64,000 nucleotides of DNA from Planctomycetota bacterium (GTDB lineage: Bacteria; Planctomycetota; UBA1135; UBA2386). The notes under the pieces were generated by a model. The model ran no database searches and was not told the origin of the DNA. It saw only the letters and a list, made by a program, of their open reading frames with translations. Position numbers and translations under genes: made by a program. Shown here one piece after another: positions 11,207 through 59,163 of this stretch (positions are counted from its first letter, which is position 1; each line of letters begins with the position of its first letter). The stretch is from NCBI GenBank assembly GCA_035649575.1, contig DASRJH010000167.1:7185-71184 (forward strand). Direction: 5' to 3'.

Positions 11207-14200
11207 TCAGCGCCGCGCGAGCTCGATGCTGGACTGGTCGGCGCGGTCCGCGTTCGCGAGAGCGCGCATCCAGCCGGCGAACTTCGCGGCCGGCAGCGTG
11301 CCCGCCTGCAGGCGCACGCTGCGCGAGAGACGCAGATGGTCGCCGTGACGCGTGCAGGTGAGCTCGTAGGCCAGCATCGCCTGCTGGATCGAGACCGGCT
11401 CCGGGACGGCGACGAAATGCAGCTCGGAGCCCGGCGCGAAGTCGATCTGCCAGTCGGTGATCATGTCGGCGGGCAGGTGGTAGGGCAGCGTGCGTTCGGT
11501 GCGATCGCCGTAGTCCGCGACGTAGCGACCCGGTGGCATCGGCAGCGGCACGACGAACTGCTCGCCGCGAGCCTGCACGCCCGTGCGCGTGAGCTTCGCC
11601 TCGAGGCGGAACGGCCCCGTCGTAGATACGATCTGAGCGCTCTCGACGCGCCAGTCCGGGAACAGCTGCTGCGCGATCTGGCGCGCCGCGAGCTTCTGCA
11701 CGTTCTCCTTGAGCTCGCGTGTCCGGTCCGCGAGGTCGAAGCCCTGCACGTCGCCGACTTCGGCCGTCGCATGCAGCTGCACGTCGTTGCCGGCGACCGT
11801 GGCCTCGCCGCGCACGTGCAGCGTCTGCACCGCGTCGGGATTGCCCGGCAGCGTCACGGCCTCGATGTCGTCGCCGCGCAGCACGTAGGCGCGGCTTCCG
11901 GCGCGGCCCGCCGGTACGGCACCGAGCGGCCAGTGGCGCGGTGTGTCGACGAACAGGAACACGCGTTCGCCGTTCCCGAGCGTGACGAGCGCGCCGGGGA
12001 TGTTGATGTGCTCGGTGTTGGCAAACAGCGACTCGGCGCCCGGGCCGAGCTCGGGCCGGACTTCGGCGCACGCCATCGGCACGACGTCGATCTGTGCTTC
12101 GCGCAGCAGGGCCACGGTCAGCAGGAAGCGGCTGCCCTTCTTGCGCAGCAGGACGTCCAACGCGGTGTCGGCGGGCCCCTTTTCGATCGTGCGCTGGCAG
12201 AAGTCCCACGCCGCGGCGAGGCGTGCGCGATCGTCCGTGAGGCCGGCGAAGATCTGCGCGGCGGCGGCGGTGATGGGTGCCAGCGGCTGCGTGCGCACGC
12301 CGAATTGCGTGCAATGCTCGCGCAGCGTCGCGAACGGCGGCGTGTCCTCGCCGAACTCGGCGAACGGCAGCAGTTCGGGTGGCGGCGGCAGGTGCTGCTC
12401 CTGCGGCAGTGCTTTGATGTCGGTGCGCGTGAACACGAGCGCCTTGCGACCATCGGGCAGCTCGTGGCTCGCCGTGGGGGTGTCGAAGTCGTGCGTGCGC
12501 AGCTCGCCGCGGGTGCGCAGTTCGCCCGGACCGCTCTTGGGGAGGATCAGCACGAGCTCGCTGCGCTGGCACGGCTCGTCGGTCGAACCGAAGTAGAATG
12601 GCGCCGTCGACAGAGGAGCCGCGTCGGGGGCGCCGCCGCGCTCGCGGTAGCGCCACTCGATGAAGGCTCCGGGTTCGAGACGCTGCATCGCATACTCGCC
12701 TTCGACGCGATGCGGCACGTAGGAGCGGCCGTCGACGCCGATCGTGCGCACGAGCAGCACTTCGGAAGCACCCGCGAGTGGAGGCGCGGTGCGCCAGGCC
12801 TCGACACCTGCCAGATCGTTGATGCGACGCAGCTCGTGCGACTCCGCGAGCCAGCCGCCATCGGGTCGGAAGGCGACGATGCGCTGGTCGTACAGCACGG
12901 TCGTCGACGCACCGCGTTCGCGCTCGCCCGCCCGGAAGGCGGCGCGCACGGCGTCGACATCGACGCGGAAGCGCGCGAACTCGGTGTCCTCGGGTTGGGT
13001 CTCGCCGAGCTGCGCGAGCCAGGTGCGCACGTGGGGCTGGTCGGAGTCGAGCTCCAGCGAGCGGCGCAGACAGGCCACGGTCTGCGCGGGGGCGCCGTTC
13101 TTCGCCCAGAGCGAGGCCAGGTGGAGCAGCGTGTCGGGATCGACGTCGGGGTGGGCTGCGATCGTGTGCATCAGGTCGGGCACGGTCGGAAGGCCCCTCT
13201 GCTGCGCAAGCTCGAGCTCGGCACGCAGGTGTGCCACGGTCGGAGCGGTTCCGAAGGAAGGCGCGATCGCGGGCAGCAGCTCGGCGGCGAGATCGTGTTC
13301 GCCGACGTCGAGAGCCGTGCGGAAGACCTGCTGCGGCAGGCCCGGCTGATCGGGTCGCAAGGCAAACGCCTGTCGTTGCCAGCCGAGCACCTGACGAGCG
13401 TCGCGCGCCGAGCCGCCTTCGTTGGCCAGCGCCAGCAACGGGCGGGGGTCGCGCGGGCACGCAGCAGCCCAGGCCTGCAGCAGCGGCACGACCTCGGCGT
13501 CGAAGCGCAGCTTGCGCACGAGCGCGAGTCGCCTCGAGTACGTCTCGGGGCCGGCGAGTCGAGACTCGGCGAGCAACCGCAGCGCTTGCTCACGCTGGTC
13601 CTGTTCGTCGAGCAGGCTCGCCTTGGCGACACGGGCTGCGTGGTGTTCTGCGGGCAGCGAGGCAATGGCGCGCTCCTCGAGGGCTCGCGCTTCGGCCTTG
13701 CGCAACTCGTCGGGCAGACGCACGGAGCGCAACAGCCGCGCGAACGCGAGCGCCTCCTGAGGATCGCGCGGCGGATCCCTGCGCAGCAGCTCGGCGAGGT
13801 CGACCGCGAGATCCTGGTCCCCGTCGCGTTGGGCGCGGTGCAGCGCTGCGATGCGCACGGCGGCCGGCGCGGCCTCGGCGCGCGCGGCGCGTCCGAAGAC
13901 CTCGCGCGGGCTCAGGAGGGTCTGTTGGTTCGGCGTCGCCGGCTTCGTCACCGCGGCCAACGGCTCGGTCGCCGCGACTTCGCGCAGACCCGCCGGCGAG
14001 TTGCCCTCGGCGTCGAGCCAGCGCAGCGACAGCTGGTCGTTGTTGGTCGAGCACGTCTTGACCAGCACGTGGTGTTCACCGGCCGGAAGGTGCATGCCGA
14101 GGCAGTGGTATTGCGGCTCGGTGCCGAGCTGCTGTTCCACGCGCAGCACTTCGGCCCCGTCGACGAAGACCTGGTGATCACCCTCGTGCACGACGACGAG

Positions 14201-14839
14201 GAACGCGTCGTTGTCGGCCGCGGCCACGACCCGGTGCAGGGCGTACCAGCAGCCGGGCCGCGGTCGGCCGACGGGACCGAGGCGGAACTGGCGCGACTCG
14301 CGTTGGCGTTCGACGACGCGCACACGCGCGACCGTGCTGCGGCCCGGCAGTTCGGCGCCGAGCGCCGGGAAACGCAGTTCGGGCGCGAACGGGACTCCGA
14401 CGTAGTGATCGCCCGAGTCACCGAACGGACCGACGACGAGCAGTGAGGTCGCGTGGTTGGTGGGCGGCGGCGGCCCGGCGCGATGAATGCCCAGGATCGC
14501 GCGGTCGAGCGTCCAGCGAAGGTCCGCGAGATTGTGGGCCAGCAGTCCGTGCTGGCGTCCGGCGCCGTCGGCTTCGAGCAGTTCGCGCAGGCTCTTCGGA
14601 TCCTGGAGCCAGCGCACCAGGTAGCCGGCTTCCTCGATCAGGAAGCTCGAGCCCGGCGAGCGCGGGTGCGCGAGTGCCTGCGTCACGAGGTCGCGGGCCG
14701 TCGCGTCGGGGTCGTCCGCACTCGGAGCCAGGGCCCTCGTTACGGCGGCCGCGAGCGTCTGGGTCTCGTCCTGCGCGCGAACCGGACCGGCGAGCGCGAG
14801 CGCGAAGCACCAGATGACTCTGCTCGAGGCAAGATTCAT
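11207..14839 (-). CDS. Large secreted TPR / transglutaminase-like protein, with the catalytic Cys apparently lost (pseudoenzyme paralog)
   Basis: 1210-aa ORF. Signal peptide VIWCFALALAGPVRAQ. It has the same overall layout as the gene at 14836..18600. The equivalent of the GDCKDKA motif reads KKGSRFLL. ATGA overlap with the upstream gene. Confidence 0.72.
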   Translation of the reverse strand: MNLASSRVIWCFALALAGPVRAQDETQTLAAAVTRALAPSADDPDATARDLVTQALAHPRSPGSSFLIEEAGYLVRWLQDPKSLRELLEADGAGRQHGLLAHNLADLRWTLDRAILGIHRAGPPPPTNHATSLLVVGPFGDSGDHYVGVPFAPELRFPALGAELPGRSTVARVRVVERQRESRQFRLGPVGRPRPGCWYALHRVVAAADNDAFLVVVHEGDHQVFVDGAEVLRVEQQLGTEPQYHCLGMHLPAGEHHVLVKTCSTNNDQLSLRWLDAEGNSPAGLREVAATEPLAAVTKPATPNQQTLLSPREVFGRAARAEAAPAAVRIAALHRAQRDGDQDLAVDLAELLRRDPPRDPQEALAFARLLRSVRLPDELRKAEARALEERAIASLPAEHHAARVAKASLLDEQDQREQALRLLAESRLAGPETYSRRLALVRKLRFDAEVVPLLQAWAAACPRDPRPLLALANEGGSARDARQVLGWQRQAFALRPDQPGLPQQVFRTALDVGEHDLAAELLPAIAPSFGTAPTVAHLRAELELAQQRGLPTVPDLMHTIAAHPDVDPDTLLHLASLWAKNGAPAQTVACLRRSLELDSDQPHVRTWLAQLGETQPEDTEFARFRVDVDAVRAAFRAGERERGASTTVLYDQRIVAFRPDGGWLAESHELRRINDLAGVEAWRTAPPLAGASEVLLVRTIGVDGRSYVPHRVEGEYAMQRLEPGAFIEWRYRERGGAPDAAPLSTAPFYFGSTDEPCQRSELVLILPKSGPGELRTRGELRTHDFDTPTASHELPDGRKALVFTRTDIKALPQEQHLPPPPELLPFAEFGEDTPPFATLREHCTQFGVRTQPLAPITAAAAQIFAGLTDDRARLAAAWDFCQRTIEKGPADTALDVLLRKKGSRFLLTVALLREAQIDVVPMACAEVRPELGPGAESLFANTEHINIPGALVTLGNGERVFLFVDTPRHWPLGAVPAGRAGSRAYVLRGDDIEAVTLPGNPDAVQTLHVRGEATVAGNDVQLHATAEVGDVQGFDLADRTRELKENVQKLAARQIAQQLFPDWRVESAQIVSTTGPFRLEAKLTRTGVQARGEQFVVPLPMPPGRYVADYGDRTERTLPYHLPADMITDWQIDFAPGSELHFVAVPEPVSIQQAMLAYELTCTRHGDHLRLSRSVRLQAGTLPAAKFAGWMRALANADRADQSSIELARR

Positions 14840-17800
14840 CGGTGGCTGTCCTTCGAGAGCAGCACGAGCTGCGTGTCGGCCGCGTGAACCGCGGCCGCGA
14901 AGTCGCGGAACGCCGCGTAGTCGCGCGTCGTGATGCGAGAGGCCGTGAACGCGAGGTGACGCTCGATCACGACCTGATCACCTTCGGTGCGCCACTGCAT
15001 GTGGAAGCTGCCGAACGGCGCCTGCCGCTGCACGGCGGGCGGCAGATCGGCGGCATGCAGGCCGGGCGGCAGCACATAGCGCACAGTGCGCACTGCTCCG
15101 CGCGGCACGCCGAGCAGGAGCGGCGTGCGCCGTTCGGGTTCGCCGGCCAGATCCTGCAGGTCTTCTTCACCCCAGGTGCTCGGCAATTGCCAGCCCTGGG
15201 CCGTCCTGTTGCCTAGCTCGGGCAGCGAGGCCACGGCGACGAGCTGCACGGGTGCTTGCAGGTCCAGCACCGGACTGCAGTCCAGCGACTCCAGCGAGAG
15301 CTTGCCGAACGTGTGCACGAGCTGCCGTTCGACGACTTCGTTCCTCCGCGCCGGCTCGGTCGCGAGCCTCGCACGCAGATCGACCGCGAGGTTGCCGATG
15401 GGCCGATACTCGACGCGCAGCTGCGCGGGCCCCGCAGGCTGCAGCGTGATCTGGAACTCCTCGCGCTCCGCGTTCCGTTCGGGCGTCGTCTCGGGCACCG
15501 TGCGCATGACGGCGCGCCCGTTGTCGACGATCAGCACCTTCGCCCCCTGGTCCATCTCGGGCAGCGTGTCGGTCGGGTGCCAGGTCGCAGTGCCGTCGAG
15601 GAACTGCTCGGGCCGGTCGCCCGCGGCCGGCAACCACGCGATGCAGTGGTTGAACTGCTCGACCATCGCGAGCTCGAGGTCGTCGAGGCTGCGCCGATCG
15701 TCGGCGAAGATCAACACAGGGTGAGACTCGACGCCGATCTCGCCGAGCAGCGCGCAAAGCAGCAGCGCCTTGTCCTTGCAGTCGCCGTGGCGGCGTTCGT
15801 AGATGACGGGCGTGCTGTAGGGTTTGTAGCCGTGCACGCCGAACTCCCAGGCTTCGTAGCGCACGTCGGTCGTCACGAAGCGGTAGATCGCGGCGATCTT
15901 CGCGCCGGTGGTCGTGCAACCTTCGCAGAGCTGTGCTGTCTTCTCGCGCATCGCCGGCGTGACCTCGAGCTGGTTCTTGATCAGGTTCCACCACCACGAG
16001 GCGAAGTGATCCCAGTCGCGGTAGGTCGTGATGCGAACGATCGGATCGAATTCGCGTCGCGAGGGGCGGCGGATCTCGGGCACGTCGCGCGGCAGATCCT
16101 GCATGTGCCAGCGGAACATCAACGTGCCGTCCTCGAGCTTCGTCTTCGTCGGCTCCGGCGCGCCGTTGCTCTGCTGGGTGCGGTAGTTGCGGCCCGGATC
16201 GGCGAGCACGACGAGCTCGTTCGATCGCACGGGCGAACCGTCCGCTGGCTCGAACTCGTGCACGTAGCCGAAGTAGTCGCCGAAGAACGACGGACCCGTG
16301 TCGTCGATGCGGCCCTCGACCGCGACGATGTCGCCGGGCCGCAGCTCCGGCATCGCGACGCTCGCGCCCTGCAGTGCCGGCCGCTGCACGGTGCCGTCCT
16401 TGCGATAGACGGCGCAGGCCAGCAGCCGCGCGCGTTGTTCACCCTGCCACCAGGGCAGCCGGTAGCGAGCGAGCTGGCGCGCGCCCTGTTCGGTCAGCAC
16501 GCGCACGATCTCGTGCTGATAGGTGTTCGTCGTGCCGTTGCCGTTGGCCCGCACGACGCGCTGGCGCAGGATCCAATGCAGCGGGTCCTTGGCCGCAGCG
16601 GCGTCGGCCGGGGGGCCCGCGTCGGCCGCGATCAGCGCAGCGGCGTCGTGCCGATACGGCGTGTAGAACGCCGTAATGACGGATTGGGGATCGCCGTGTT
16701 CGGCAGCGACCAGATACTCGAGGTAGCGCTCGTCGTCGCGGCGGTTCGGCTCGACGGACAGAGCCTGCCGCAGGAGCTCCTGCTGGCGGCTGCCGGCATC
16801 GGCGCTGCGTTCGCCGAGCAGCCGGCAGCAGCGGCTCGCGGTCACCATGACCGCGCTGTCGTCCGGTGCGATCTCCAACCACGTCTCGCAGACGGCGAGA
16901 GCCTGTGGATACTCGGCGCGCGCCAGGTGCATCGCGGCGAGTTGCTCGGAGACCTTTGCCGCGAATGGGTCGCCCTTCAGCGTCTTGGCGAGCAGATCGA
17001 TCGCCGCGTCGGCTTTGCCGGTGCGCGCGAGCAGTCCCGCGGCGGCCACGACGTCGTTCTCGGTCGCGCTGACGGCAGGCACCCTCGCGCGCAGCTCGAG
17101 CGCGCGGGTCGGCTCTCGATCGTCCACGATGTCGGCAGCCGTGCGCAGCAGCTCGGGGGATGCTTCGGGCAGCGCTGCCGCGGCGAGCACTTCGACCTCG
17201 GCGAGCGCGGACACTCCCTCGTCGTGCCACGTGGCGGCTCGCAGCATCACGGCGGCTGCGTGGCCCGGTCGGACCCGCAGCGCGTGATCGACCAGTTCGC
17301 GCGCCTGCCGGAACAGGCCACTGCCCGAACGCAGCAGCTTCGCGAGGCGCAACAACGCCTCGACGTGGTCGGGGCAGAGCGACAGCGCTTGCTCGAGCGA
17401 TCGCCGCGCGTCGTTGTCGTCGCGGTCGGCAGCGCTTCGCACCTGGCTCTCGCGCGAGATCGCCATCAGCACGTGGGTTTCGGGGAGCGTTGGCAGTTCG
17501 GTCGTGGCGCAGAGAGCGGCGGCCTGGTCGCGGCGGTTCAGGTCGCCATCCGCGGCGCGAGCCCGCCAGAGCCAGGCGAGGCGCAGCGCATCGGCTCCCT
17601 TCTGCTTGCCGATCTGCCAGTGCGTGCGGGCACCGAGACTCGGCAGTGGCAGCGCCTCCGCGACGACCGGCGCCGTCTTCGCGGCTGCCTGCAGGTCGTC
17701 GACGTCGGTCGAAACACGCACGCCGCCGAGCGGACTGCCGTCGAGCGCGCGCAGGCGAGCCGCGGCCTGCCACTCGACGCCCTCCTGGTGGCAGAGCTTC

Positions 17801-18600
17801 CACACGAGCAGGTTCGGGCCGGCAGCGAGCGGCAGCACGACCGCGTCCTGGTCATACGCGAACGTGCGCTCGACCTCCCTGCTGCCGACTTCGACGCCGT
17901 TGCAGAAGACGCGGAAGCTGCCGGTGCAGCCGATCTCGAACACGGCCGTCGTAGGGGTCGCGGCGACGATGGCAACGGCCGCGTAGACGAGCGACTGCTC
18001 GTGGGGGTGCACGATGCGCGAGAGCGGCAGCACGTGCGAGCCCGTGAGCGGCGGCAGCCGCCGCCAGCGCACGGCGCGCCGCTTGCCCTTCCACTCGGCT
18101 GCAGCGTCGAAGCCGCGCTCGGGTGGCAGCGCGCTGCGATAGCCGACACCGCGTTCGTTGTCGAACGGGCCGACGAGCCAGTATCGACTCAGGAAACCGA
18201 GTGCTTCGGCGCGGCGGCCGGCGTCTTCGCCGGGACCGGCGGCGATCAAGCCGGCGATGCCGACCCGGTCGCGCAGCAACGGCAGCGCCGTGGCGAGCTT
18301 GCTCTCGCGCAGTGCATCGAGCTGCTGCAGCTGGTCCGGTGAGCTGCGCACGCGCAGGAGGCGCGAAGCTTCGGTGGCCCAGGCTTCGACGCGCGCTGCG
18401 GCGTCCTCGTCGTTGGCCTCGCGGGCGGTGTCGGTCGCCAGGGTCAGCAGCGCTGTGACGGCGCTGCCGGTTTCTCCGGCGGCCTTGTGGCCGAGTGCTT
18501 TGGCTTCGAGCGGCAGCAGTTCCTGCGCGCGGGCCGCTGCGGCGAGCAGCAGGAGGGACAGCAGGGAGCGGCGGATGCGCCCAGTCTTGGCGGGAATCAC
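14836..18600 (-). CDS. Large secreted TPR + transglutaminase-like cysteine protease-fold protein (DUF3857/DUF3858-type architecture)
   Basis: 1254-aa ORF. Signal peptide LLSLLLLAAAARAQ. N-terminal beta-sandwich (YWLVGPFDNERG...), a long helical repeat region, then the transglutaminase core RRHGDCKDKALLLCALLGEIG ... FNHCIAWL ... FLDGT. Confidence 0.84.
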   Translation of the reverse strand: MIPAKTGRIRRSLLSLLLLAAAARAQELLPLEAKALGHKAAGETGSAVTALLTLATDTAREANDEDAAARVEAWATEASRLLRVRSSPDQLQQLDALRESKLATALPLLRDRVGIAGLIAAGPGEDAGRRAEALGFLSRYWLVGPFDNERGVGYRSALPPERGFDAAAEWKGKRRAVRWRRLPPLTGSHVLPLSRIVHPHEQSLVYAAVAIVAATPTTAVFEIGCTGSFRVFCNGVEVGSREVERTFAYDQDAVVLPLAAGPNLLVWKLCHQEGVEWQAAARLRALDGSPLGGVRVSTDVDDLQAAAKTAPVVAEALPLPSLGARTHWQIGKQKGADALRLAWLWRARAADGDLNRRDQAAALCATTELPTLPETHVLMAISRESQVRSAADRDDNDARRSLEQALSLCPDHVEALLRLAKLLRSGSGLFRQARELVDHALRVRPGHAAAVMLRAATWHDEGVSALAEVEVLAAAALPEASPELLRTAADIVDDREPTRALELRARVPAVSATENDVVAAAGLLARTGKADAAIDLLAKTLKGDPFAAKVSEQLAAMHLARAEYPQALAVCETWLEIAPDDSAVMVTASRCCRLLGERSADAGSRQQELLRQALSVEPNRRDDERYLEYLVAAEHGDPQSVITAFYTPYRHDAAALIAADAGPPADAAAAKDPLHWILRQRVVRANGNGTTNTYQHEIVRVLTEQGARQLARYRLPWWQGEQRARLLACAVYRKDGTVQRPALQGASVAMPELRPGDIVAVEGRIDDTGPSFFGDYFGYVHEFEPADGSPVRSNELVVLADPGRNYRTQQSNGAPEPTKTKLEDGTLMFRWHMQDLPRDVPEIRRPSRREFDPIVRITTYRDWDHFASWWWNLIKNQLEVTPAMREKTAQLCEGCTTTGAKIAAIYRFVTTDVRYEAWEFGVHGYKPYSTPVIYERRHGDCKDKALLLCALLGEIGVESHPVLIFADDRRSLDDLELAMVEQFNHCIAWLPAAGDRPEQFLDGTATWHPTDTLPEMDQGAKVLIVDNGRAVMRTVPETTPERNAEREEFQITLQPAGPAQLRVEYRPIGNLAVDLRARLATEPARRNEVVERQLVHTFGKLSLESLDCSPVLDLQAPVQLVAVASLPELGNRTAQGWQLPSTWGEEDLQDLAGEPERRTPLLLGVPRGAVRTVRYVLPPGLHAADLPPAVQRQAPFGSFHMQWRTEGDQVVIERHLAFTASRITTRDYAAFRDFAAAVHAADTQLVLLSKDSHR

Positions 18601-18610
18601 TGACTCGTCT

Positions 18611-19477
18611 TTAACGCACCGGCCCTTCTGACGGCAACTGCGCAGGCGTCGCCGCCTGCGCCGTGCCGATGTCGGGGCTCGACAATTCTTGCCGGTCGAG
18701 GCGCTTGTCCTGGTTGCGGTCGAGCCGCTGCATCAGCGTTGCGGCCCAACGGCCGAGGCTCGGGTCGAGGCGCTGCAGCATGTGGGTGAGCTCGGGCTCG
18801 TCGATCGTGCTGTCGCCGTTCTCGTCGCCGACGACCGCGGGTGCCTCGGCACCTGCGAGCAGACCCGGTGGCAACAAGGTCTGGACCTTGTGCTGCTTGA
18901 ACCAGGGAGCGAGCTCTGGTTCTTCGACGCGGCCCGTGCGGTCGAGATCGAGGCTGCGCAACTGCTGAATGGCTTGGGGGTTCACGAGGCCGATCCGCGC
19001 GAGCTGGTCGATCTCCGCCGGGTCGAGGCCGCCGTTGCGATTGGCGTCGAGCAGCTGCAGGAACACCTGCAGCGGCGTCGGCGCAGTGGCCTTCTGCTGC
19101 TCGGGCGCCTGCTCGACGAGACGGCGACACGGGTCGACGCGGAACGGGGCGCCGCGCTTCACCGTGGCCTGGAACTGGCGATCGAACTCGGGCCAACCGA
19201 CATAGCCATCGCGGTCCTGGTCGAGACGCGCGAATCCGGCGTGGTCCTTCTTGCCGCGCAGCCAATCGAACGCGGCGCTGGCTTCGAAGAAATCGAGACG
19301 ATCGTCGCTGTTGGCGTCACACGACGTGAACAGACTGCGACTCTTCGACTCCGTGTAGGTCTCGGCCGTGGCGCCGGCCGTGCCCGCGTCATCGGCGGTG
19401 GAAGCGCTGCGCGACGTCTGGGCGAGCAGCGTCGCGGTCAGGAACCACAGGGTCGCGAACTTGGTCCAAGGAGACAT
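18611..19477 (-). CDS. Secreted multi-EF-hand calcium-binding protein
   Basis: 288-aa ORF. Signal peptide FATLWFLTATLLAQT. Six DxDxDG-like loops: DANSDDRLDFFE, DQDRDGYVGWPE, DANRNGGLDPAE, DLDRTGRVEEPE, DENGDSTIDEPE, DRNQDKRLDRQE. Confidence 0.8.
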   Translation of the reverse strand: MSPWTKFATLWFLTATLLAQTSRSASTADDAGTAGATAETYTESKSRSLFTSCDANSDDRLDFFEASAAFDWLRGKKDHAGFARLDQDRDGYVGWPEFDRQFQATVKRGAPFRVDPCRRLVEQAPEQQKATAPTPLQVFLQLLDANRNGGLDPAEIDQLARIGLVNPQAIQQLRSLDLDRTGRVEEPELAPWFKQHKVQTLLPPGLLAGAEAPAVVGDENGDSTIDEPELTHMLQRLDPSLGRWAATLMQRLDRNQDKRLDRQELSSPDIGTAQAATPAQLPSEGPVR

Positions 19478-53430: not shown

Positions 53431-54188
53431 TCCCGCTGCGCGACAGCATCCCGGCCAGCCGGACTCCCGTCGTGACCTGGGCGATCGTCGCGGCGTGCGC
53501 GGTGGCCTTCCTGCTGCAACTGCGCGACGACCAGGGCGAGCTGATCGAGCAATATGGCATGGTGCCGGCGCGCGTGTTCGATCCGCAGGCGCGGCACGTG
53601 CTGAGGGACATCGTGGACCATCGCGGCGGGTCCCACGTGCTGATGCAGGCCGCCGTGCCCGACTGGCTCACGCTGCTCACGTGTACGTTCCTGCACGGCG
53701 GCTGGCTGCACTTCCTCGGCAACATGTGGTTCCTGTGGATCTTCGGCGACAACGTCGAGGATCGTTTCGGCCGGCTGCGGTTCCTCTGCTTCTACCTCGG
53801 TTGCGGGATCGCGGCCTCGCTCGCGCATCTGCTCACGGCGCCGCAGTCGAGCGTGCCGACCATCGGCGCGAGTGGTGCGATCGCGGGCGTGATGGGGGCC
53901 TACTTGTTCCTGTATCCGCGGTCGCGCGTCGAGATGCTGTTCATCTGGGGCTTCTTCGTCGACGTGATCGTGTTGCCGGCGCCGTTCTTTCTCGGCTACT
54001 GGTTCCTGCTGCAACTCGTGCAGGGCATGGTCGAAATCGGCGGCCGCGGCGGCGGTGTCGCGTGGTGGGCCCACATCGGCGGCTTCGCGGTGGGGGCTGC
54101 GGTGGCCGCGCTGCTTCCAAAGATGCGCCCGGTGCCCCCGACGATCGTGCTCACGCGACGGCGTCACAGCTGGCCGCCGCGACGGTAG
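53427..54188 (+). CDS. Rhomboid-family intramembrane serine protease
   Basis: ORF 53394..54188, with the GTG at 53427 overlapping the folP stop. Motifs HGGWLHFLGNMWFLWIFG, GASGAIAG (Ser) and AHIGGF (His). Confidence 0.9.
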   Translation: MIPLRDSIPASRTPVVTWAIVAACAVAFLLQLRDDQGELIEQYGMVPARVFDPQARHVLRDIVDHRGGSHVLMQAAVPDWLTLLTCTFLHGGWLHFLGNMWFLWIFGDNVEDRFGRLRFLCFYLGCGIAASLAHLLTAPQSSVPTIGASGAIAGVMGAYLFLYPRSRVEMLFIWGFFVDVIVLPAPFFLGYWFLLQLVQGMVEIGGRGGGVAWWAHIGGFAVGAAVAALLPKMRPVPPTIVLTRRRHSWPPRR

Positions 54189-54365
54189 TGACGGGCCGCG
54201 CACTCAAGCAACGGTGCGACGGGCAGGTCGACGGTCGCGCGATGACGGCCTCGATCGGGAGTCCGGGGTCACCAAGTCGACACGAACGCCAGTTCGGCCT
54301 CAAGTCAGCCGGGGGGAACGTCGAATAATGCCTCGTGGTGCCGCCGAGCGGGCCATGTCTGACGC

Positions 54366-54980
54366 ATGGAATCTGTCAACGACGTCAAGCAAGCTCTCTC
54401 CGCGCGTTCCCGGACCGCGACTCTCGACGAGTTGCGCAACGAGGGGCGCAAGCGCGTGCGGCTCATCCGCGCCGAGCACGTGGCATCAATGATCACCGAA
54501 GCGGTCAATGCGGCCGTGGAGCAGTCCGGCCTCGTCGACCCCGAAGAGGTCAAGAAGCTCGTCGACAAGAGCCGGCAGGAGTTCCGTTCGATCCTGCGCG
54601 AGCGCGAGCAGGAAGCCCAGGAGACCAATGAGGCCCAAGAGCAGCTCGAGGCCCGCGATCGCGAGATCGCCGAGCTGAAGAAGCGCCTCGAGCAGATGTC
54701 GGGCGGCAAGGCCGGGGCGTCGGTGCCGGTCAGTGGCGACCTCTCGGCCGTCCTCGCGAAGATCGAGGGCTCGATCAACGATCGACTCGAGAAGATCGGC
54801 AAGAAGATGGGCGTCAGTGCCGCCGTCGAGTCCGACACGCCGGTGGACTTCTCGGGCTTGTTCAAGGAAGCGGACAAGAAGCTCGAGTCCAACATGGAAA
54901 ACATCGAAGTCAAGAAGACGGAAGGCGGCGGTATCGCTGCCAACCTCGCTCGACTCAAGAAGCTCAAGGGCGGCAGCTGA
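54366..54980 (+). CDS. Coiled-coil protein of unknown function, upstream partner of the actin-like gene
   Basis: 204-aa ORF. Central charged helical stretch EREQEAQETNEAQEQLEARDREIAELKKRLEQ. I recognised no signal peptide, TM segment or HTH. Confidence 0.65.
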   Translation: MESVNDVKQALSARSRTATLDELRNEGRKRVRLIRAEHVASMITEAVNAAVEQSGLVDPEEVKKLVDKSRQEFRSILREREQEAQETNEAQEQLEARDREIAELKKRLEQMSGGKAGASVPVSGDLSAVLAKIEGSINDRLEKIGKKMGVSAAVESDTPVDFSGLFKEADKKLESNMENIEVKKTEGGGIAANLARLKKLKGGS

Positions 54981-55019
54981 CCGCTGCCGGTCCACATTGG
55001 GAAAGCAAGGCGGAGATCA

Positions 55020-56048
55020 ATGACGAAGCAAGACAAGAAGGAACACACCGAGACGCAAGTCGCCCTGGGCAAGGGCCTGGACGTGGGAACGGCCAACTTC
55101 GCTGCCGCAGTGCAGAACGAAGACGGCGGCATCACGGTGACCGTGGAGCGCAACGCGTTCCTCGACATCCCGAGCGACGTCTACAGCAAGAACATGCTGG
55201 TCAAGCTCAAGGTGCCCTATGTCGTGCACAACAACAGGCTCGTCGTCATCGGCGAAGCGGCCTTCGAGCTCGCGAACGTGTTCGGCCGTGAGACGCGCCG
55301 CCCGATGCGCGACGGCCTGATCAGTCCGAACGAGCAGGACGCGCTGCCGATGATGAAGATGATCATCACGAAGATCCTCGGCGAGCCCCGGGTGTCCGGC
55401 GAGAACTGCTACTTCTGTGTGCCAGCCCCGTCGCTCGACGTCGACAACAACGTCGACTACCACCGCGGTCTGTTCGAGAGCGTGATCAACAAGATGGGCT
55501 ACCGCGCGCACGCGGTGAACGAAGCCCACGCTGTCGTGTTCGCCGAGCTGGCCGAGCAGGATTTCACGGGCATCGGCCTCTCGTTCGGCGGCGGCATGGC
55601 CAACGCCTGCATCTGCTACAAGTCGATCCCGTGTCTCTCGTTCTCGGTGGCGCGCGGCGGCGACTGGATCGACAAGAACGTCGCGAACGTGCTCGGCTGC
55701 CCGCGCAGCAAGGCCACGCACATCAAGGAGCGCGGCATCGACATCCGCGACCCGAAGAGCCGCGAAGAGGAAGCCGTCGCGATCTACTACCGCAGCCTGA
55801 TCAACTACGTGCTGCAGAACATCAAAACGCGGTTCGAGTCGGGCCAGAACATGCCGAGCTTCACGACGCCGATCGACATCGCCTGCGCGGGCGGTACGTC
55901 GCTGGTCGGGGGCTTCATCGAGGTCTTCCGCGACGAGTTCGCGAAGATCGACTTCCCGCTGCCGGTCGGTCGCATCTTCCGCAGCGAAGAAGCCCTGACG
56001 GCCGTCGCGAAGGGCTGCCTCGTCGCCGCCGCGATCGGCGAAAGCTGA
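55020..56048 (+). CDS. Divergent MreB/MamK-like actin-fold (ASKHA) ATPase
   Basis: 342-aa ORF with motifs in MreB order: GLDVGTANF, VVIGEAAFE...RRPMRDGLIS, AVNEAHAVVFAE, GIGLSFGGGMAN, SVARGGDWID, IACAGGTSLVGGF, ALTAVAKGC. Confidence 0.8.
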   Translation: MTKQDKKEHTETQVALGKGLDVGTANFAAAVQNEDGGITVTVERNAFLDIPSDVYSKNMLVKLKVPYVVHNNRLVVIGEAAFELANVFGRETRRPMRDGLISPNEQDALPMMKMIITKILGEPRVSGENCYFCVPAPSLDVDNNVDYHRGLFESVINKMGYRAHAVNEAHAVVFAELAEQDFTGIGLSFGGGMANACICYKSIPCLSFSVARGGDWIDKNVANVLGCPRSKATHIKERGIDIRDPKSREEEAVAIYYRSLINYVLQNIKTRFESGQNMPSFTTPIDIACAGGTSLVGGFIEVFRDEFAKIDFPLPVGRIFRSEEALTAVAKGCLVAAAIGES

Positions 56049-56060
56049 TCGGCATGGCTC

Positions 56061-56087
56061 GCACCGCCGGCCATGCAACGGCGGTGC
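56061..56087. terminator. Stem-loop between convergent genes; a possible bidirectional terminator without a clear U-tract
   Basis: GCACCGCC (56061-56068) pairs perfectly with GGCGGTGC (56080-56087) around an 11-nt loop. It sits between the stop at 56048 (+) and the stop at 56089 (-). Confidence 0.4.
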
Positions 56088-56088
56088 G

Positions 56089-59058
56089 TCACAACGCGAG
56101 CGTCAGCCGGATCCAGTTCGTGAGCTTGCGTTCCTGTTGCCCGCTCGCGTCGAGCGAGAAGCCCGCGAAATAGAGCGGCAGTCCGGCCAGGAACGGCAGA
56201 GCCGGCACGTAGAGCGTCGGCTGAGCAGTGCCGGTCGCGCTCAGCACGCCCTGGAAGTCCACGAAGAACGGGCTCGTCGGATCGAGGCCGGCCTCGAGGA
56301 TGAAGCCGTAGTTGAGCGGCAGCAGATTCCCGGCCGGCAGCACGAGGCCCGGCGAGAAGCCTTCGCTGAGGCAGAGGATGTAGCGGAGCCCCGCTTCGGT
56401 CGGCAGCGACAGCGACATCGGCACAGGTTGGCCCATCGTCGCGGTCGCAGGGCCGCGCAGCGGCATGCCGTCGAGCAGGAACGACAGGCTCTGCCTCAGC
56501 AGCCGGGCGCGCGCACCCGGATCGGTGATCGTGTCGAGTGGCAGGCCGAAGCAGACGACGCGCGCCCCCGTGACGGGGTCGAGCTTCTGGATGCCCGCGG
56601 CGAGCCCGTTGCCGTAGCGCAGGCAGACGGTGCTGTTGGCAGTCGTCGCCGCGAGCACGTCCGCGTACTCGACCTGGTAGGTGCCGGACATGCCGTCGTC
56701 GAAGCTCGTGGCCGGGACTCCGGCGCTCACGGTGCCTGGGATGCCTGGCTGCAGCGCGTAGGTGTTCGCGTCGTCGGCGACGTAGGTCGTGCCGAGCACG
56801 TTGCGGTAGAAGTTGCGGTCGCTCGCCGAGCCGTTCGCGTCGAGATCCCAGCCGACCTCGGCGCCGCTCACGAGCAGGCTGCCGCCGCCGTTGAGGAAGG
56901 CCGCGACGAGGGCCTGTTCGAGGTTGCCGAAGGTCTCGTCGGCGGTGCTCTCCTCGCCGAGCGACCAGACGACGGCTTCGTAGCTCGGCAGCTGCACGCG
57001 TCCGAGCGTCACGGCTTCGTTGCTCGCCGCGTCGAAGCCCAGCGAGTAGCTCGCCTCGCGCCGCAGCGCGTCGCCGAAGTGGCGCAGGTAGTCGCGCGTG
57101 TTGTCGGGGCCTTTCACGTGGCGGTCGAGGCGGTCGAATCCCTGTACGAGCAGGACCTGTGCTTCGCCGAGGTGGTCGGTGCCCGCGGTCATCACTTCGG
57201 TCGGAAACGATCGTCCGGTCGTGTTCCAGGCGCGCACGCGGAACGAGAGCATCGTGTGGTGCGGCAGGGGGCCGGTCGACCAGTTCGTTCCGGTCACCGA
57301 AGCTACCTCGAGGAAGCCCTTGCCGTCGGCCGACTGTTCGACGGTGTAGTGGGTTGCTCCGACAGCCGGGTCCCAAGCGACGCGCAGGCCGCGCGCGCCG
57401 TCCTGCACGACACGCAGCGCGGCCGGCGGCTCGGGCGGGAACGGGGCCAGCGGCGCGAAGTAGCGCAGCACGCCTCGCGCATACGCGCGCGCGGCGAGGT
57501 AGCGGAAATCGGGGTCGTGCAGCGAGGAGTGGTCGAGCGAGCCCGGGCTGTCGTGGAACGCGAGCTCGACGAGGATGCCCGGCATCGTGGCGAGCAGGCG
57601 CAGCTCGCCGAAGTTCGCGCCGTGCTGGCCGCGGTCGACCCACGCGGGGTTCCAGAACACCTGCAGGTCGCCGACGATCTGCGTGTGCACGCTCTGGCTC
57701 AGCGCGGCCGAGCCCGGCGTCGCGCCGCCGCTGTAGACGAACGTGTCGGTGCCGCTGCCGCCGCCGGCATTCGTGTGTAGCGAGACGAACGCGTGCGCGG
57801 TGCGCCACTCGGCGAAGCGCGGGCGCGCGGTCACGTCGTCGTCGTTGTCCTGACCGGTCGAGACCGGGTTCCAGACGGTGCTCGGGGCGCCCGCGAACTG
57901 GGCCCAGTAGCGCGCGCATTCCTTCCATCGCAGCTGGTTGCTCGTGGTGCCGCCGCGCGCGATCGAACCGAGGCCGCCGCCGAGTCGCACGGTGTCGGCG
58001 ATCGCGACGCCGGGACTCGCGGACTGGTTGCTGAGCACGACGCGCGCGCCCGCGGCTGCAGAGAACCAGAAGTCGCCGAGGTGCGTCCAGGTCAGGTTGT
58101 CCTTCTGCTGGTCGACCGTCGCGGTGCCGATGCCGCCCGTGTGGTGGATGCGGTAGTTCGCGGCCGGCGTGCGGTTGGCGCTCGCGCGATAGCACGCGAA
58201 CACGGGGTAGAGCCCGTCCTCGGCGACCGGGATGGTCCAGGTCGCGGTCGCGGTCTCGGTGGCTCCCGTGCTCACGAACCGATAGCCGCCGCCGTTGTAG
58301 CCCGACGAAGCCGACGTGGTCCAACTGCCGGTCTCGCTGTACCCGGGGGCTCCGGCGTCGTTGTCGACGAGGGCGTCCTGGTCGACTTCGCCGTGCTCGC
58401 GGCAGAACACGACTTCGGCGCCGAGGTTGTGCAGGAACGGGATCAGGTACTGGTTGCAGATCTCGGCCGTGTGGATGTCTTCGATGAGGCCGTCGATGAG
58501 GCCGCGCTGCGTGGTCCAGCCGAGCGTGCTGTGCCAGTAGTAGCCGTGGCCTGGCGACACCGCGATGCGCTTGCCGCTCAGCGCCCCGAACGGGCTCGTG
58601 AACGCGAACGGCGGTGGGGGTGATGGTGCTGGCGGCTGCGCGGGTGGATGGCCGAGCAGGTCGCCGAGGTCGGGCTCGCTGCCGTCGGGTTGCCGGACCG
58701 CGATGCGCACGCTGTGCACGAAGGGGGCGAGCAACGCGGTCTTGTCGACCTGTTCGATCGCGTGCTCGAGCTGACGGCCCGCGGTCGCCGTGAGCAGCGT
58801 CGTGTCGAAGACGAGATGCAGGATGCCGCCCTGCTGCCGTGCATCGACCAGCTGCGTGCCGGGCGGCACGTGGCTCGTGTAGCCCGCGGCGAGCTCGACG
58901 GGGCTCGGGCCCAGGCACAGGTGGCGGATCGCGCTCGCGACGTCGCGGTGGCGCGGCGGAACGCTCGCGAGGTTGTGGTCGCGAAAGAACAGGACTTCCT
59001 GTGCCTCTGCGGTGGCGCACAGCGTCAGCAGGACGAGCGCGTGTGAAGCCGTGGCCAT
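56089..59058 (-). CDS. Secreted multidomain N-acetylmuramoyl-L-alanine amidase. Layout: GerMN-like N-terminus, Amidase_3 split by an inserted beta-sandwich, an FN3-like module, and further C-terminal modules.
   Basis: ORF 56089..59142 from MATASHALVLLTLCATAEAQ. Amidase halves are RIAVSPGHGYYW...IEDIHTAEI and FVSLHTNAGGGSGTDTF...ILVELAFHDSP. The insertion reads VDNDAGAPGYSETGSWTTSASSGYNGGGYRF... Confidence 0.82.
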   Translation of the reverse strand: MATASHALVLLTLCATAEAQEVLFFRDHNLASVPPRHRDVASAIRHLCLGPSPVELAAGYTSHVPPGTQLVDARQQGGILHLVFDTTLLTATAGRQLEHAIEQVDKTALLAPFVHSVRIAVRQPDGSEPDLGDLLGHPPAQPPAPSPPPPFAFTSPFGALSGKRIAVSPGHGYYWHSTLGWTTQRGLIDGLIEDIHTAEICNQYLIPFLHNLGAEVVFCREHGEVDQDALVDNDAGAPGYSETGSWTTSASSGYNGGGYRFVSTGATETATATWTIPVAEDGLYPVFACYRASANRTPAANYRIHHTGGIGTATVDQQKDNLTWTHLGDFWFSAAAGARVVLSNQSASPGVAIADTVRLGGGLGSIARGGTTSNQLRWKECARYWAQFAGAPSTVWNPVSTGQDNDDDVTARPRFAEWRTAHAFVSLHTNAGGGSGTDTFVYSGGATPGSAALSQSVHTQIVGDLQVFWNPAWVDRGQHGANFGELRLLATMPGILVELAFHDSPGSLDHSSLHDPDFRYLAARAYARGVLRYFAPLAPFPPEPPAALRVVQDGARGLRVAWDPAVGATHYTVEQSADGKGFLEVASVTGTNWSTGPLPHHTMLSFRVRAWNTTGRSFPTEVMTAGTDHLGEAQVLLVQGFDRLDRHVKGPDNTRDYLRHFGDALRREASYSLGFDAASNEAVTLGRVQLPSYEAVVWSLGEESTADETFGNLEQALVAAFLNGGGSLLVSGAEVGWDLDANGSASDRNFYRNVLGTTYVADDANTYALQPGIPGTVSAGVPATSFDDGMSGTYQVEYADVLAATTANSTVCLRYGNGLAAGIQKLDPVTGARVVCFGLPLDTITDPGARARLLRQSLSFLLDGMPLRGPATATMGQPVPMSLSLPTEAGLRYILCLSEGFSPGLVLPAGNLLPLNYGFILEAGLDPTSPFFVDFQGVLSATGTAQPTLYVPALPFLAGLPLYFAGFSLDASGQQERKLTNWIRLTLAL

Positions 59059-59163
59059 GGGCTCCGCAAGCATAGAGGACTCTGTCGCGACATGCTGCAC
59101 GCGAGGCCGCCGGGCCGGCTGCGAATCTACGCTCGATGGCAAGACCGAACTTGCGCGTTCTGG

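Follow-up and report, generated by a model that had tools for sequence, protein, structure and literature searches.

What kind of system is encoded by two adjacent genes of a Planctomycetota bacterium, one specifying an actin-like protein and the other a helical protein of no named family? Both genes lie on the forward strand of a 64,000-nucleotide (nt) stretch of contig DASRJH010000167.1 (assembly GCA_035649575.1), hereafter the window, whose positions serve as coordinates and whose G+C content is 67-70% throughout. The first gene (54366..54980, ATG start) encodes a 204-amino-acid (aa) all-helical protein, here called the partner, and the second (55020..56048, ATG start) a 342-aa actin-like ATPase of the Volactin family (PF25216). 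An earlier note, made from the letters of the window, had described an orphan, highly divergent MreB/MamK-like ATPase paired with a coiled-coil protein as a candidate self-contained cytoskeletal module. The divergent actin-fold ATPase with its coiled-coil partner stands as such a module, its filament and adaptor activities being predictions from sequence; "orphan" does not stand, and "MamK-like" holds for the fold only. We consider, with a probability of about 60%, that the locus is a chromosomal two-gene unit, probably an operon, encoding a filament-forming Volactin-family ATPase and a dedicated, co-evolving helical partner.

A full-length Volactin-family actin

The 342-aa protein is a full-length member of the Volactin family with an actin/ASKHA fold. 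Against the Pfam model PF25216 ("Volactin"; cutoff 35 bits) it scores 272.3 bits with E 8.6e-81, the match spanning positions 3-321 of the 321 in the model, and all of its top 120 homologues carry the same domain. A HMMER scan of 1.84 billion cluster representatives returned 1,132 clusters, defined at 50% identity, at E <= 0.001, of which 376 reached E <= 1e-30; a protein that belongs to a family of more than 1,000 such clusters is no orphan. The family received its name recently, its characterised members come from archaea, and the window protein is a new addition to it. The six actin motifs listed in the earlier note were all found in the translation, namely GLDVGTANF (residues 19-27), RPMRDGLIS (94-102), AVNEAHAVVFAE (165-176), GLSFGGGMAN (186-195), IACAGGTSLVGGF (287-299) and ALTAVAKGC (325-333), and 129 family members share conserved phosphate-1, connect, phosphate-2 and adenosine motifs. 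The phosphate-2 motif does read S-F-GGG, as noted, instead of the D-I-GGG of MreB; with Ser at this position in 122 of the 129 aligned members and Asp in two, the alignment identifies the Ser as a signature of the Volactin family.

The AlphaFold2 (AF2) model of the protein has an actin-type topology, with a predicted template-modelling score (pTM) of 0.72 and a predicted local distance difference test (pLDDT) of 77. Foldseek gave a probability of 1.00 for matches of this model to MreB, MamK, BeeR and actin, with template-modelling (TM) scores of 0.62-0.64 for MreB (E 1e-14, ~20% identity), 0.67-0.70 for the MamK filament (~18% identity) and 0.67 for BeeR, and weaker scores for ParM (0.51, 13% identity) and for Hsp70 and EutJ domains (0.52-0.54). 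The likeness to MamK proposed earlier thus concerns the fold and not the family, the NCBIfam model of MamK (NF040964) scoring 15.9 bits against a cutoff of 400.

The earlier note had also allowed that the protein might simply fall within ordinary MreB. Were it a divergent extra copy of MreB that serves an ordinary elongasome, this would account for the MreB structures among the best Foldseek matches and for a weak MreB_Mbl match over residues 70-222, but the protein stays below every MreB cutoff (Pfam MreB_Mbl 23.7 against 27 bits; NCBIfam PRK13927 20.6 against 293 and TIGR00904 19.5 against 365.75) while scoring 272 bits with another curated family. It is ~20% identical to MreB structures, no PDB chain was matched by sequence, including none at E <= 1 to any MreB, the phosphate-2 Asp is replaced by Ser, and mreC, mreD, rodA and pbp2 are missing nearby. 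Contradicted by model cutoffs and context, this explanation is extremely unlikely. FtsA models remained below their cutoffs as well (Pfam FtsA 20.8 against 31.8; TIGR01174 13.6 against 175.85).

Taxonomic labels recovered for the family are Planctomycetota, one metagenome-assembled genome (MAG) of Minisyncoccales, which belong to the candidate phyla radiation (CPR), and Haloarchaea. By tblastn against annotated plasmids, the actin matched haloarchaeal megaplasmids only (Natrinema, Haloarcula pNG700 and Halogeometricum pHBOR01; 94% of the protein aligned at 38-40% identity, with E values from 2e-75 to 4e-72), and the adenosine motif of the Haloarcula homologue, VPVVVTGGTSSP, is identical to the published one of volactin (PMC10869688, Supplementary Fig. 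8b). The partner is 100% identical to a protein of a MAG labelled "Planctomycetota bacterium". Scanning a single genome for each GTDB species yielded 80 loci, nearly all labelled Planctomycetota, whose actins show 75-93% identity; each locus has a single copy of the Volactin gene, as does the window. Over 75 loci the median identity reached 87.6% for the actin, compared with 66.9% for the amidase, 66.0% for FolP and 65.9% for the rhomboid protein encoded around it, and 53.7% for the partner, and the actin exceeded each neighbouring gene in every paired locus. The actin is under very strong purifying selection.

Volactin-family actins are also carried by two huge uncultured phages, LR745208 (485 kb, 42% identical) and LR756511 (595 kb, 32%). 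In the former (locus L084, 4334-5981) a 207-aa open reading frame (ORF) shares 20 nt with the start of the actin gene, and its tail (...DAMGALKAVRKK...) loosely resembles that of the partner, the match not being significant. The family gene of the Minisyncoccales MAG (GCA_049642725.1, locus L085, 4001-5044) lies within a gas-vesicle-like cluster comprising GvpH (a weak match), a CDC48/AAA ATPase, two GvpL_GvpF proteins, one of them with a DnaJ domain, and ArsA; if genuine, an actin accompanied by gas-vesicle genes would be an unexpected pairing in a CPR bacterium. Three predicted genes of ~730 aa (P0241, P0242 and P0245) have two Volactin domains in tandem per polypeptide, and a fourth (P0256, 1160 aa) joins a Volactin domain to Wzz/GNVR and to a ParA/BY-kinase-like ATPase.

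A partner linked, and in other lineages fused, to Volactin-type actins

The pairing suspected in the earlier note is borne out in relatives. A partner homologue lies directly upstream of the actin, on the same strand, at all 75 loci that include upstream DNA (five of the 80 end inside the actin gene and were excluded from this count), and partner–actin adjacency is constant while the outer flanks vary. Actins 37-53% identical to that of the window are preceded by partner homologues too (loci L086, L088 and L089); both conserved blocks of the partner, described below, were recognised at L086 (E 4e-9) and L088 (E 1e-8), L089 being connected via L086 (E 9e-5). Two upstream genes that stood outside all profiles (L090_up324 and L091_up403) matched the profile of the partner's N-terminal domain with 66-77 bits and that of its C-terminal block with E 1e-5 and 6e-8.

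Fusions tell the same story. N-terminal extensions of at least 45 aa are present on 35 of the 150 best actin representatives, and in eight clusters the N-domain of the partner itself is found on the actin N-terminus (phmmer E 4e-7 and 5e-6). Aligned by hhalign, the N-domain of the partner and the fused heads matched over 75 columns (93.8% probability, E 1.7e-7), and one fusion was confirmed as a single ORF in its contig. The partner is obligatorily linked to a Volactin-type actin, and other lineages have its N-domain fused to the actin.

One locus (L092, 176-3389) encodes a fused N-domain–actin (P0267) followed by a separate 368-aa protein with a partner N-domain (78 bits), so that some lineages carry this domain twice.

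The partner is, as described in the earlier note, a helical protein encoded 39 nt upstream of the actin on the same strand, and neither it nor the actin has a transmembrane segment. It could be assigned to no Pfam or NCBIfam family above cutoff and to no PHROG, and the PDB held no match by sequence profile or by fold; PADLOC gave two coiled-coil matches for the partner, both below 15 bits, and meaningful PHROGs or PADLOC matches were lacking for both proteins. The AF2 model of the partner (mean pLDDT 71, pTM 0.30) contains helices at residues 4-14, 20-54, 59-114, 126-147, 165-186 and 190-200 and no strand. Three parts can be distinguished, all on the forward strand. The N-terminal conserved domain (~aa 1-85, 54366..54620) is nearly invariant within the clade, and a homology search with its alignment yielded no more than 14 short fragments, all belonging to this clade. 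The central long helix (aa 59-114, 54540..54707, pLDDT 86-91) is a probable coiled coil, judging from the model, and the middle of the protein (aa ~81-125) varies in sequence and length, homologues measuring 203-333 aa. The C-terminal conserved block (aa ~125-204, 54738..54977) has invariant or near-invariant columns, follows the family pattern LESN...LxRLKxLxGG and ends in ...LESNMENIEVKKTEGGGIAANLARLKKLKGGS.

The terminal helix 190-200 is weakly amphipathic (hydrophobic moment, muH, 0.26-0.41). A membrane-targeting helix of the MinD/FtsA type at the C-terminus was considered and is unsupported, muH being modest and inconsistent among homologues (0.11-0.53). A ParR-like ribbon-helix-helix was rejected, the KRVRLIRAEH... 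stretch lying inside AF2 helix 20-54.

In nine further clusters the actin bears a different N-terminal head. Six of the seven heads tested match the Pfam helix-turn-helix (HTH) family HTH_ParB (PF17762), with a best E of 1.4e-7, and the first ParB-headed representative scored 25.3 bits against a cutoff of 22.6. These ParB-headed actins come from Planctomycetota MAGs, where they form three-gene arrays in the order partner homologue, plain actin, ParB-headed actin. The plain actin of the arrays is the closest relative of the window actin outside its own clade (399-416 bits). The window clade thus has the module in a two-gene form, to which other members of the phylum add a DNA-binding head.

By gene order, partner size and coiled coil, the pair recalls grpE-dnaK. 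A non-polymerising ASKHA ATPase, chaperone- or EutJ-like, with an upstream coiled-coil cofactor would be compatible with the atypical phosphate-2 residue and with the presence of EutJ and Hsp70 nucleotide-binding domains among the fold matches. Those matches, however, are weaker than the ones to MreB and MamK (TM 0.52-0.54 compared with 0.62-0.70), the partner has no GrpE match, and a head that is fused via long linkers, or swapped for a ParB HTH, suits an adaptor more than an exchange factor. As the characterised Volactin member moreover forms filaments (PMC10869688), we hold a chaperone-like role to be very improbable.

The ParB heads bear on another explanation, a chromosomal ParMRC-like segregation machine in which the actin moves DNA and the partner is a centromere-binding adaptor comparable to ParR, AlfB or Alp7R. 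A paralogous actin fused to a ParB-type HTH within the same module of sister Planctomycetota points that way, as do family members on haloarchaeal megaplasmids and in huge phages, the dynamically unstable salactin, which aids DNA partitioning (PMC10746226), and the ParM-like dynamic instability seen in both volactin and salactin (PMC10869688, PMC10746226). Yet the partner has no DNA-binding fold (all-helical, no ribbon-helix-helix strand, no HTH family, no PDB match), the 177-nt region upstream of it is free of iterated repeats, and the order partner–actin is the reverse of parMR. The context is a housekeeping chromosome with flanks of uniform 67-70% G+C, not a plasmid, and a ParB-headed second actin was found neither in the window nor at the 80 related loci. 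A segregation machine of this type seems unlikely for the window locus.

Layout and neighbourhood of the locus

The pair is preceded by a 177-nt intergenic region (54189..54365), the presumed promoter, which extends from the end of a rhomboid gene at 54188 to the partner start at 54366. Between the two genes lies a spacer of 39 nt (54981..55019, forward strand) with a Shine-Dalgarno-like GGAG (55012-55015) placed 4 nt before the actin ATG; this short gap and ribosome-binding-like site suggest that the two genes probably form an operon. Codon-position G+C of the partner and actin ORFs is of the coding type (0.86 and 0.92, respectively, at the third position and ~0.40 at the second). The actin stop is 40 nt from the stop codon of the convergent gene that follows, and a GC hairpin (56060..56088) is located between them, formed by a perfect 10-bp inverted repeat with arms CGCACCGCCG (56060-56069) and CGGCGGTGCG (56079-56088) and a 9-nt loop. 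The gap and the hairpin reported earlier are therefore both present, the repeat measuring 10 bp instead of the 8 bp stated.

The hairpin has no T-run and was not called by the terminator scan, and no sigma-70 consensus site was found in the 177-nt upstream region, consensus promoter and terminator scans being uninformative at 68% G+C. Near the pair there are no iterated centromere-like repeats, positions 54150-54400 containing two-copy 8-nt matches only and no tandem array, and the window contains no Rfam family. The partner and actin ORFs are in one frame, separated by a TGA and 13 sense codons (54978-55022), and readthrough would mimic the natural fusions; stop-codon readthrough was nevertheless rejected, the shared frame occurring at 13 of 74 loci, which is below chance.

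Annotated genes of the window are of a housekeeping kind, encoding NADH dehydrogenase subunits, RF3, 6-phosphogluconate dehydrogenase, Lgt, TatD, QueC, FolP, chorismate mutase and a U32 peptidase. Among its annotated ORFs (a gene map based on third-position G+C, with some stretches unannotated) none corresponds to mreB, mreC, mreD, rodA, pbp2, ftsZ or parAB. That mreC, mreD, pbp2 and rodA do not follow the actin had been seen in the earlier note; the gene that does follow is convergent (56089..59142, reverse strand) and encodes a 1016-aa peptidoglycan amidase with the Pfam domains Germane, Golvesin_C and Amidase_3. An amidase homologue is located downstream of the pair at 34 of the 61 loci with enough DNA, 26 of these being directly adjacent and convergent, and at the most divergent loci it is kept in 7 of 15, where folP and the rhomboid gene are each found in none of the 15. 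The amidase is loosely associated with the partner–actin pair.

This association is of interest for a further alternative, that of a cytoskeleton for morphogenesis or division in which partner-guided filaments direct budding, septation or growth of the envelope, perhaps jointly with the amidase. Planctomycetota are without FtsZ (PMC11032199, PMC6952346), volactin affects cell-shape transitions (PMC10869688), and the actin is conserved at the level of a core cytoskeletal protein; the convergent Amidase_3 gene, persisting at divergent loci where the other flanks are lost, adds to these arguments. The amidase gene is nonetheless convergent and hence not co-transcribed, and it is missing from 44% of the loci. 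Neither protein has a transmembrane segment or a convincing membrane-targeting helix (muH 0.11-0.53 in homologues), and elongasome and divisome genes were not found in the 64-kb window. This alternative, too, appears doubtful.

Elsewhere in the window (11210-19477, reverse strand) a gene for a 288-aa EF-hand protein (18614-19477) adjoins those of two giant proteins, one of 1210 aa without a Pfam match and one of 1254 aa with TPR, DUF3857 and a transglutaminase core.

Proposed working and comparison with known systems

In the two-gene unit that we favour, the actin would, like volactin, polymerise into dynamic filaments in the cytoplasm, using ATP. Volactin (HVO_2015) of Haloferax volcanii assembles into dynamic filaments that contact the membrane with their tips, and it promotes the change from rod to disk shape; within the family, filament formation has been demonstrated for this protein only, and its binding factors are unknown according to its authors (PMC10869688). 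The partner, which in the structural model would probably dimerise through its central coiled coil, may act as an adaptor or regulator coupling the filaments to a cellular target. Its N-domain is most likely a targeting or cargo-binding module, because it occupies the same position as the ParB-type head of the sister proteins (head, linker, actin). For contact with the actin, the best candidate is the C-terminal block, which is conserved, ends in a basic helix and comes into play only where the partner is a polypeptide of its own. The process served may be the positioning or segregation of DNA or other cargo, or morphogenesis and division independent of FtsZ, which we consider about equally likely: the ParB heads and the DNA-partitioning role of salactin (PMC10746226) point to the former, and the shape phenotype of volactin, the lack of FtsZ in the phylum (PMC11032199) and the convergent amidase to the latter.

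Several points weigh against this reading. Polymerisation, ATPase activity, binding and localisation are, for bacterial members, deduced only from their sequences, and a Ser stands here where MreB, ParM and actin have their phosphate-2 Asp, so the chemistry of hydrolysis may differ. The alignment used for folding the actin was shallow (76-90% identity), with one of five models confident, and the partner model, of moderate confidence, has no fold match, the roles of its domains being taken from architecture, as is the candidate assignment of the end that touches the actin. Operon status is likewise deduced, no promoter or terminator consensus having been found.

The locus offers a concrete candidate for an actin adaptor, an unannotated partner that always travels with the actin and is fused to it in other lineages, and a handle on how a phylum without FtsZ organises the cell interior, segregates its DNA or divides. 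The volactin family received its name in 2024, on the basis of a single haloarchaeon; here it is represented by a highly constrained, single-copy chromosomal gene across a broad set of Planctomycetota. In a literature search of limited coverage, no papers were found on bacterial Volactin members, the partner, the fusions or the ParB-headed paralogues. A bolder and rather speculative proposal would make the partner the first of a family of volactin-binding adaptors and the pair, together with the ParB-headed second actin of sister lineages, the phylum-wide core cytoskeleton of FtsZ-less Planctomycetota, positioning DNA or directing budding and division. Were this true, the same design, in which the upstream adaptor combines a variable head for targeting with a short tail that binds actin, would account as well for the way haloarchaeal volactin is anchored to the membrane by its filament tips. 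A more ordinary possibility is that the pair is a positioning system specific to its lineage and modest in scope.

Among known systems, MreB, which provides the nearest solved fold, similarly works with a helical partner, RodZ. The window partner differs from RodZ by the lack of its HTH and transmembrane segments, and the window actin from MreB by scores below all MreB cutoffs, ~20% identity and the lack of mreCD, rodA and pbp2 nearby. MamK has a similar fold (TM 0.67-0.70) and likewise works with an adaptor, MamJ, but the NCBIfam MamK score (15.9 against 400 bits) and the lack of magnetosome genes at the window locus set it apart. Saltatorellin of Saltatorellus, a MamK-like second actin of a planctomycete-related clade that forms filaments when expressed heterologously (10.1101/817700), was considered as a cultured counterpart and rejected, since it is 71-78% similar to true MamK and so belongs to a different family. 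ParM/ParR, Alp7A/Alp7R and AlfA/AlfB resemble the proposed working of the window pair in that an actin-like filament is linked to its cargo by a small dedicated adaptor encoded next to it; ParM is, however, a poor fold match (TM 0.51, 13% identity), and the putative adaptor of the window is encoded upstream instead of downstream and has no ribbon-helix-helix, at a locus that is without centromere repeats and is chromosomal and housekeeping in context, not plasmid-borne.

The closest comparisons are archaeal. Salactin of Halobacterium salinarum, compared by its published description, has a role in DNA partitioning that echoes the ParB-HTH heads of the planctomycetal paralogues; poor synteny and no partner were reported for it (PMC10746226), whereas the window actin has a linked partner. 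Volactin (VolA), the namesake of PF25216, belongs to the same curated family as the window actin, and both are plain actin folds of ~340 aa. They differ at phosphate-2, which is Asp in the published figure of volactin (PMC10869688) and Ser in the window actin, and in origin, volactin being archaeal and the window actin bacterial (Planctomycetota) and known here from sequence. In Haloferax proteomics the abundance of HVO_2016, a conserved hypothetical protein, and of CetZ5 (HVO_2013) parallels that of HVO_2015 (PMC10869688 supplementary tables).

The haloarchaeal megaplasmid actins, like that of the window, have an uncharacterised gene directly upstream on the same strand. With profiles of the partner's C-terminal block, such upstream proteins gave mixed scores: the broad profile scored 14.9 bits for Halogeometricum (best of 820 shuffles, 9.7), 2.2 for Haloarcula, 4.9 for the CPR bacterium and 0.7 for the phage, and the narrow profile was not significant against the haloarchaeal, phage and CPR proteins. 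An SMC-related gene was seen near the actin locus of pHBOR01. The genes for the haloarchaeal upstream proteins, at L082 3926-4834 (pNG700) and L083 3800-4699 (pHBOR01), encode products that match each other with E 2e-55. These have four transmembrane segments and an acidic tail, in contrast to the soluble, coiled-coil partner of the window, and are candidate membrane anchors for the tips of volactin-type filaments.

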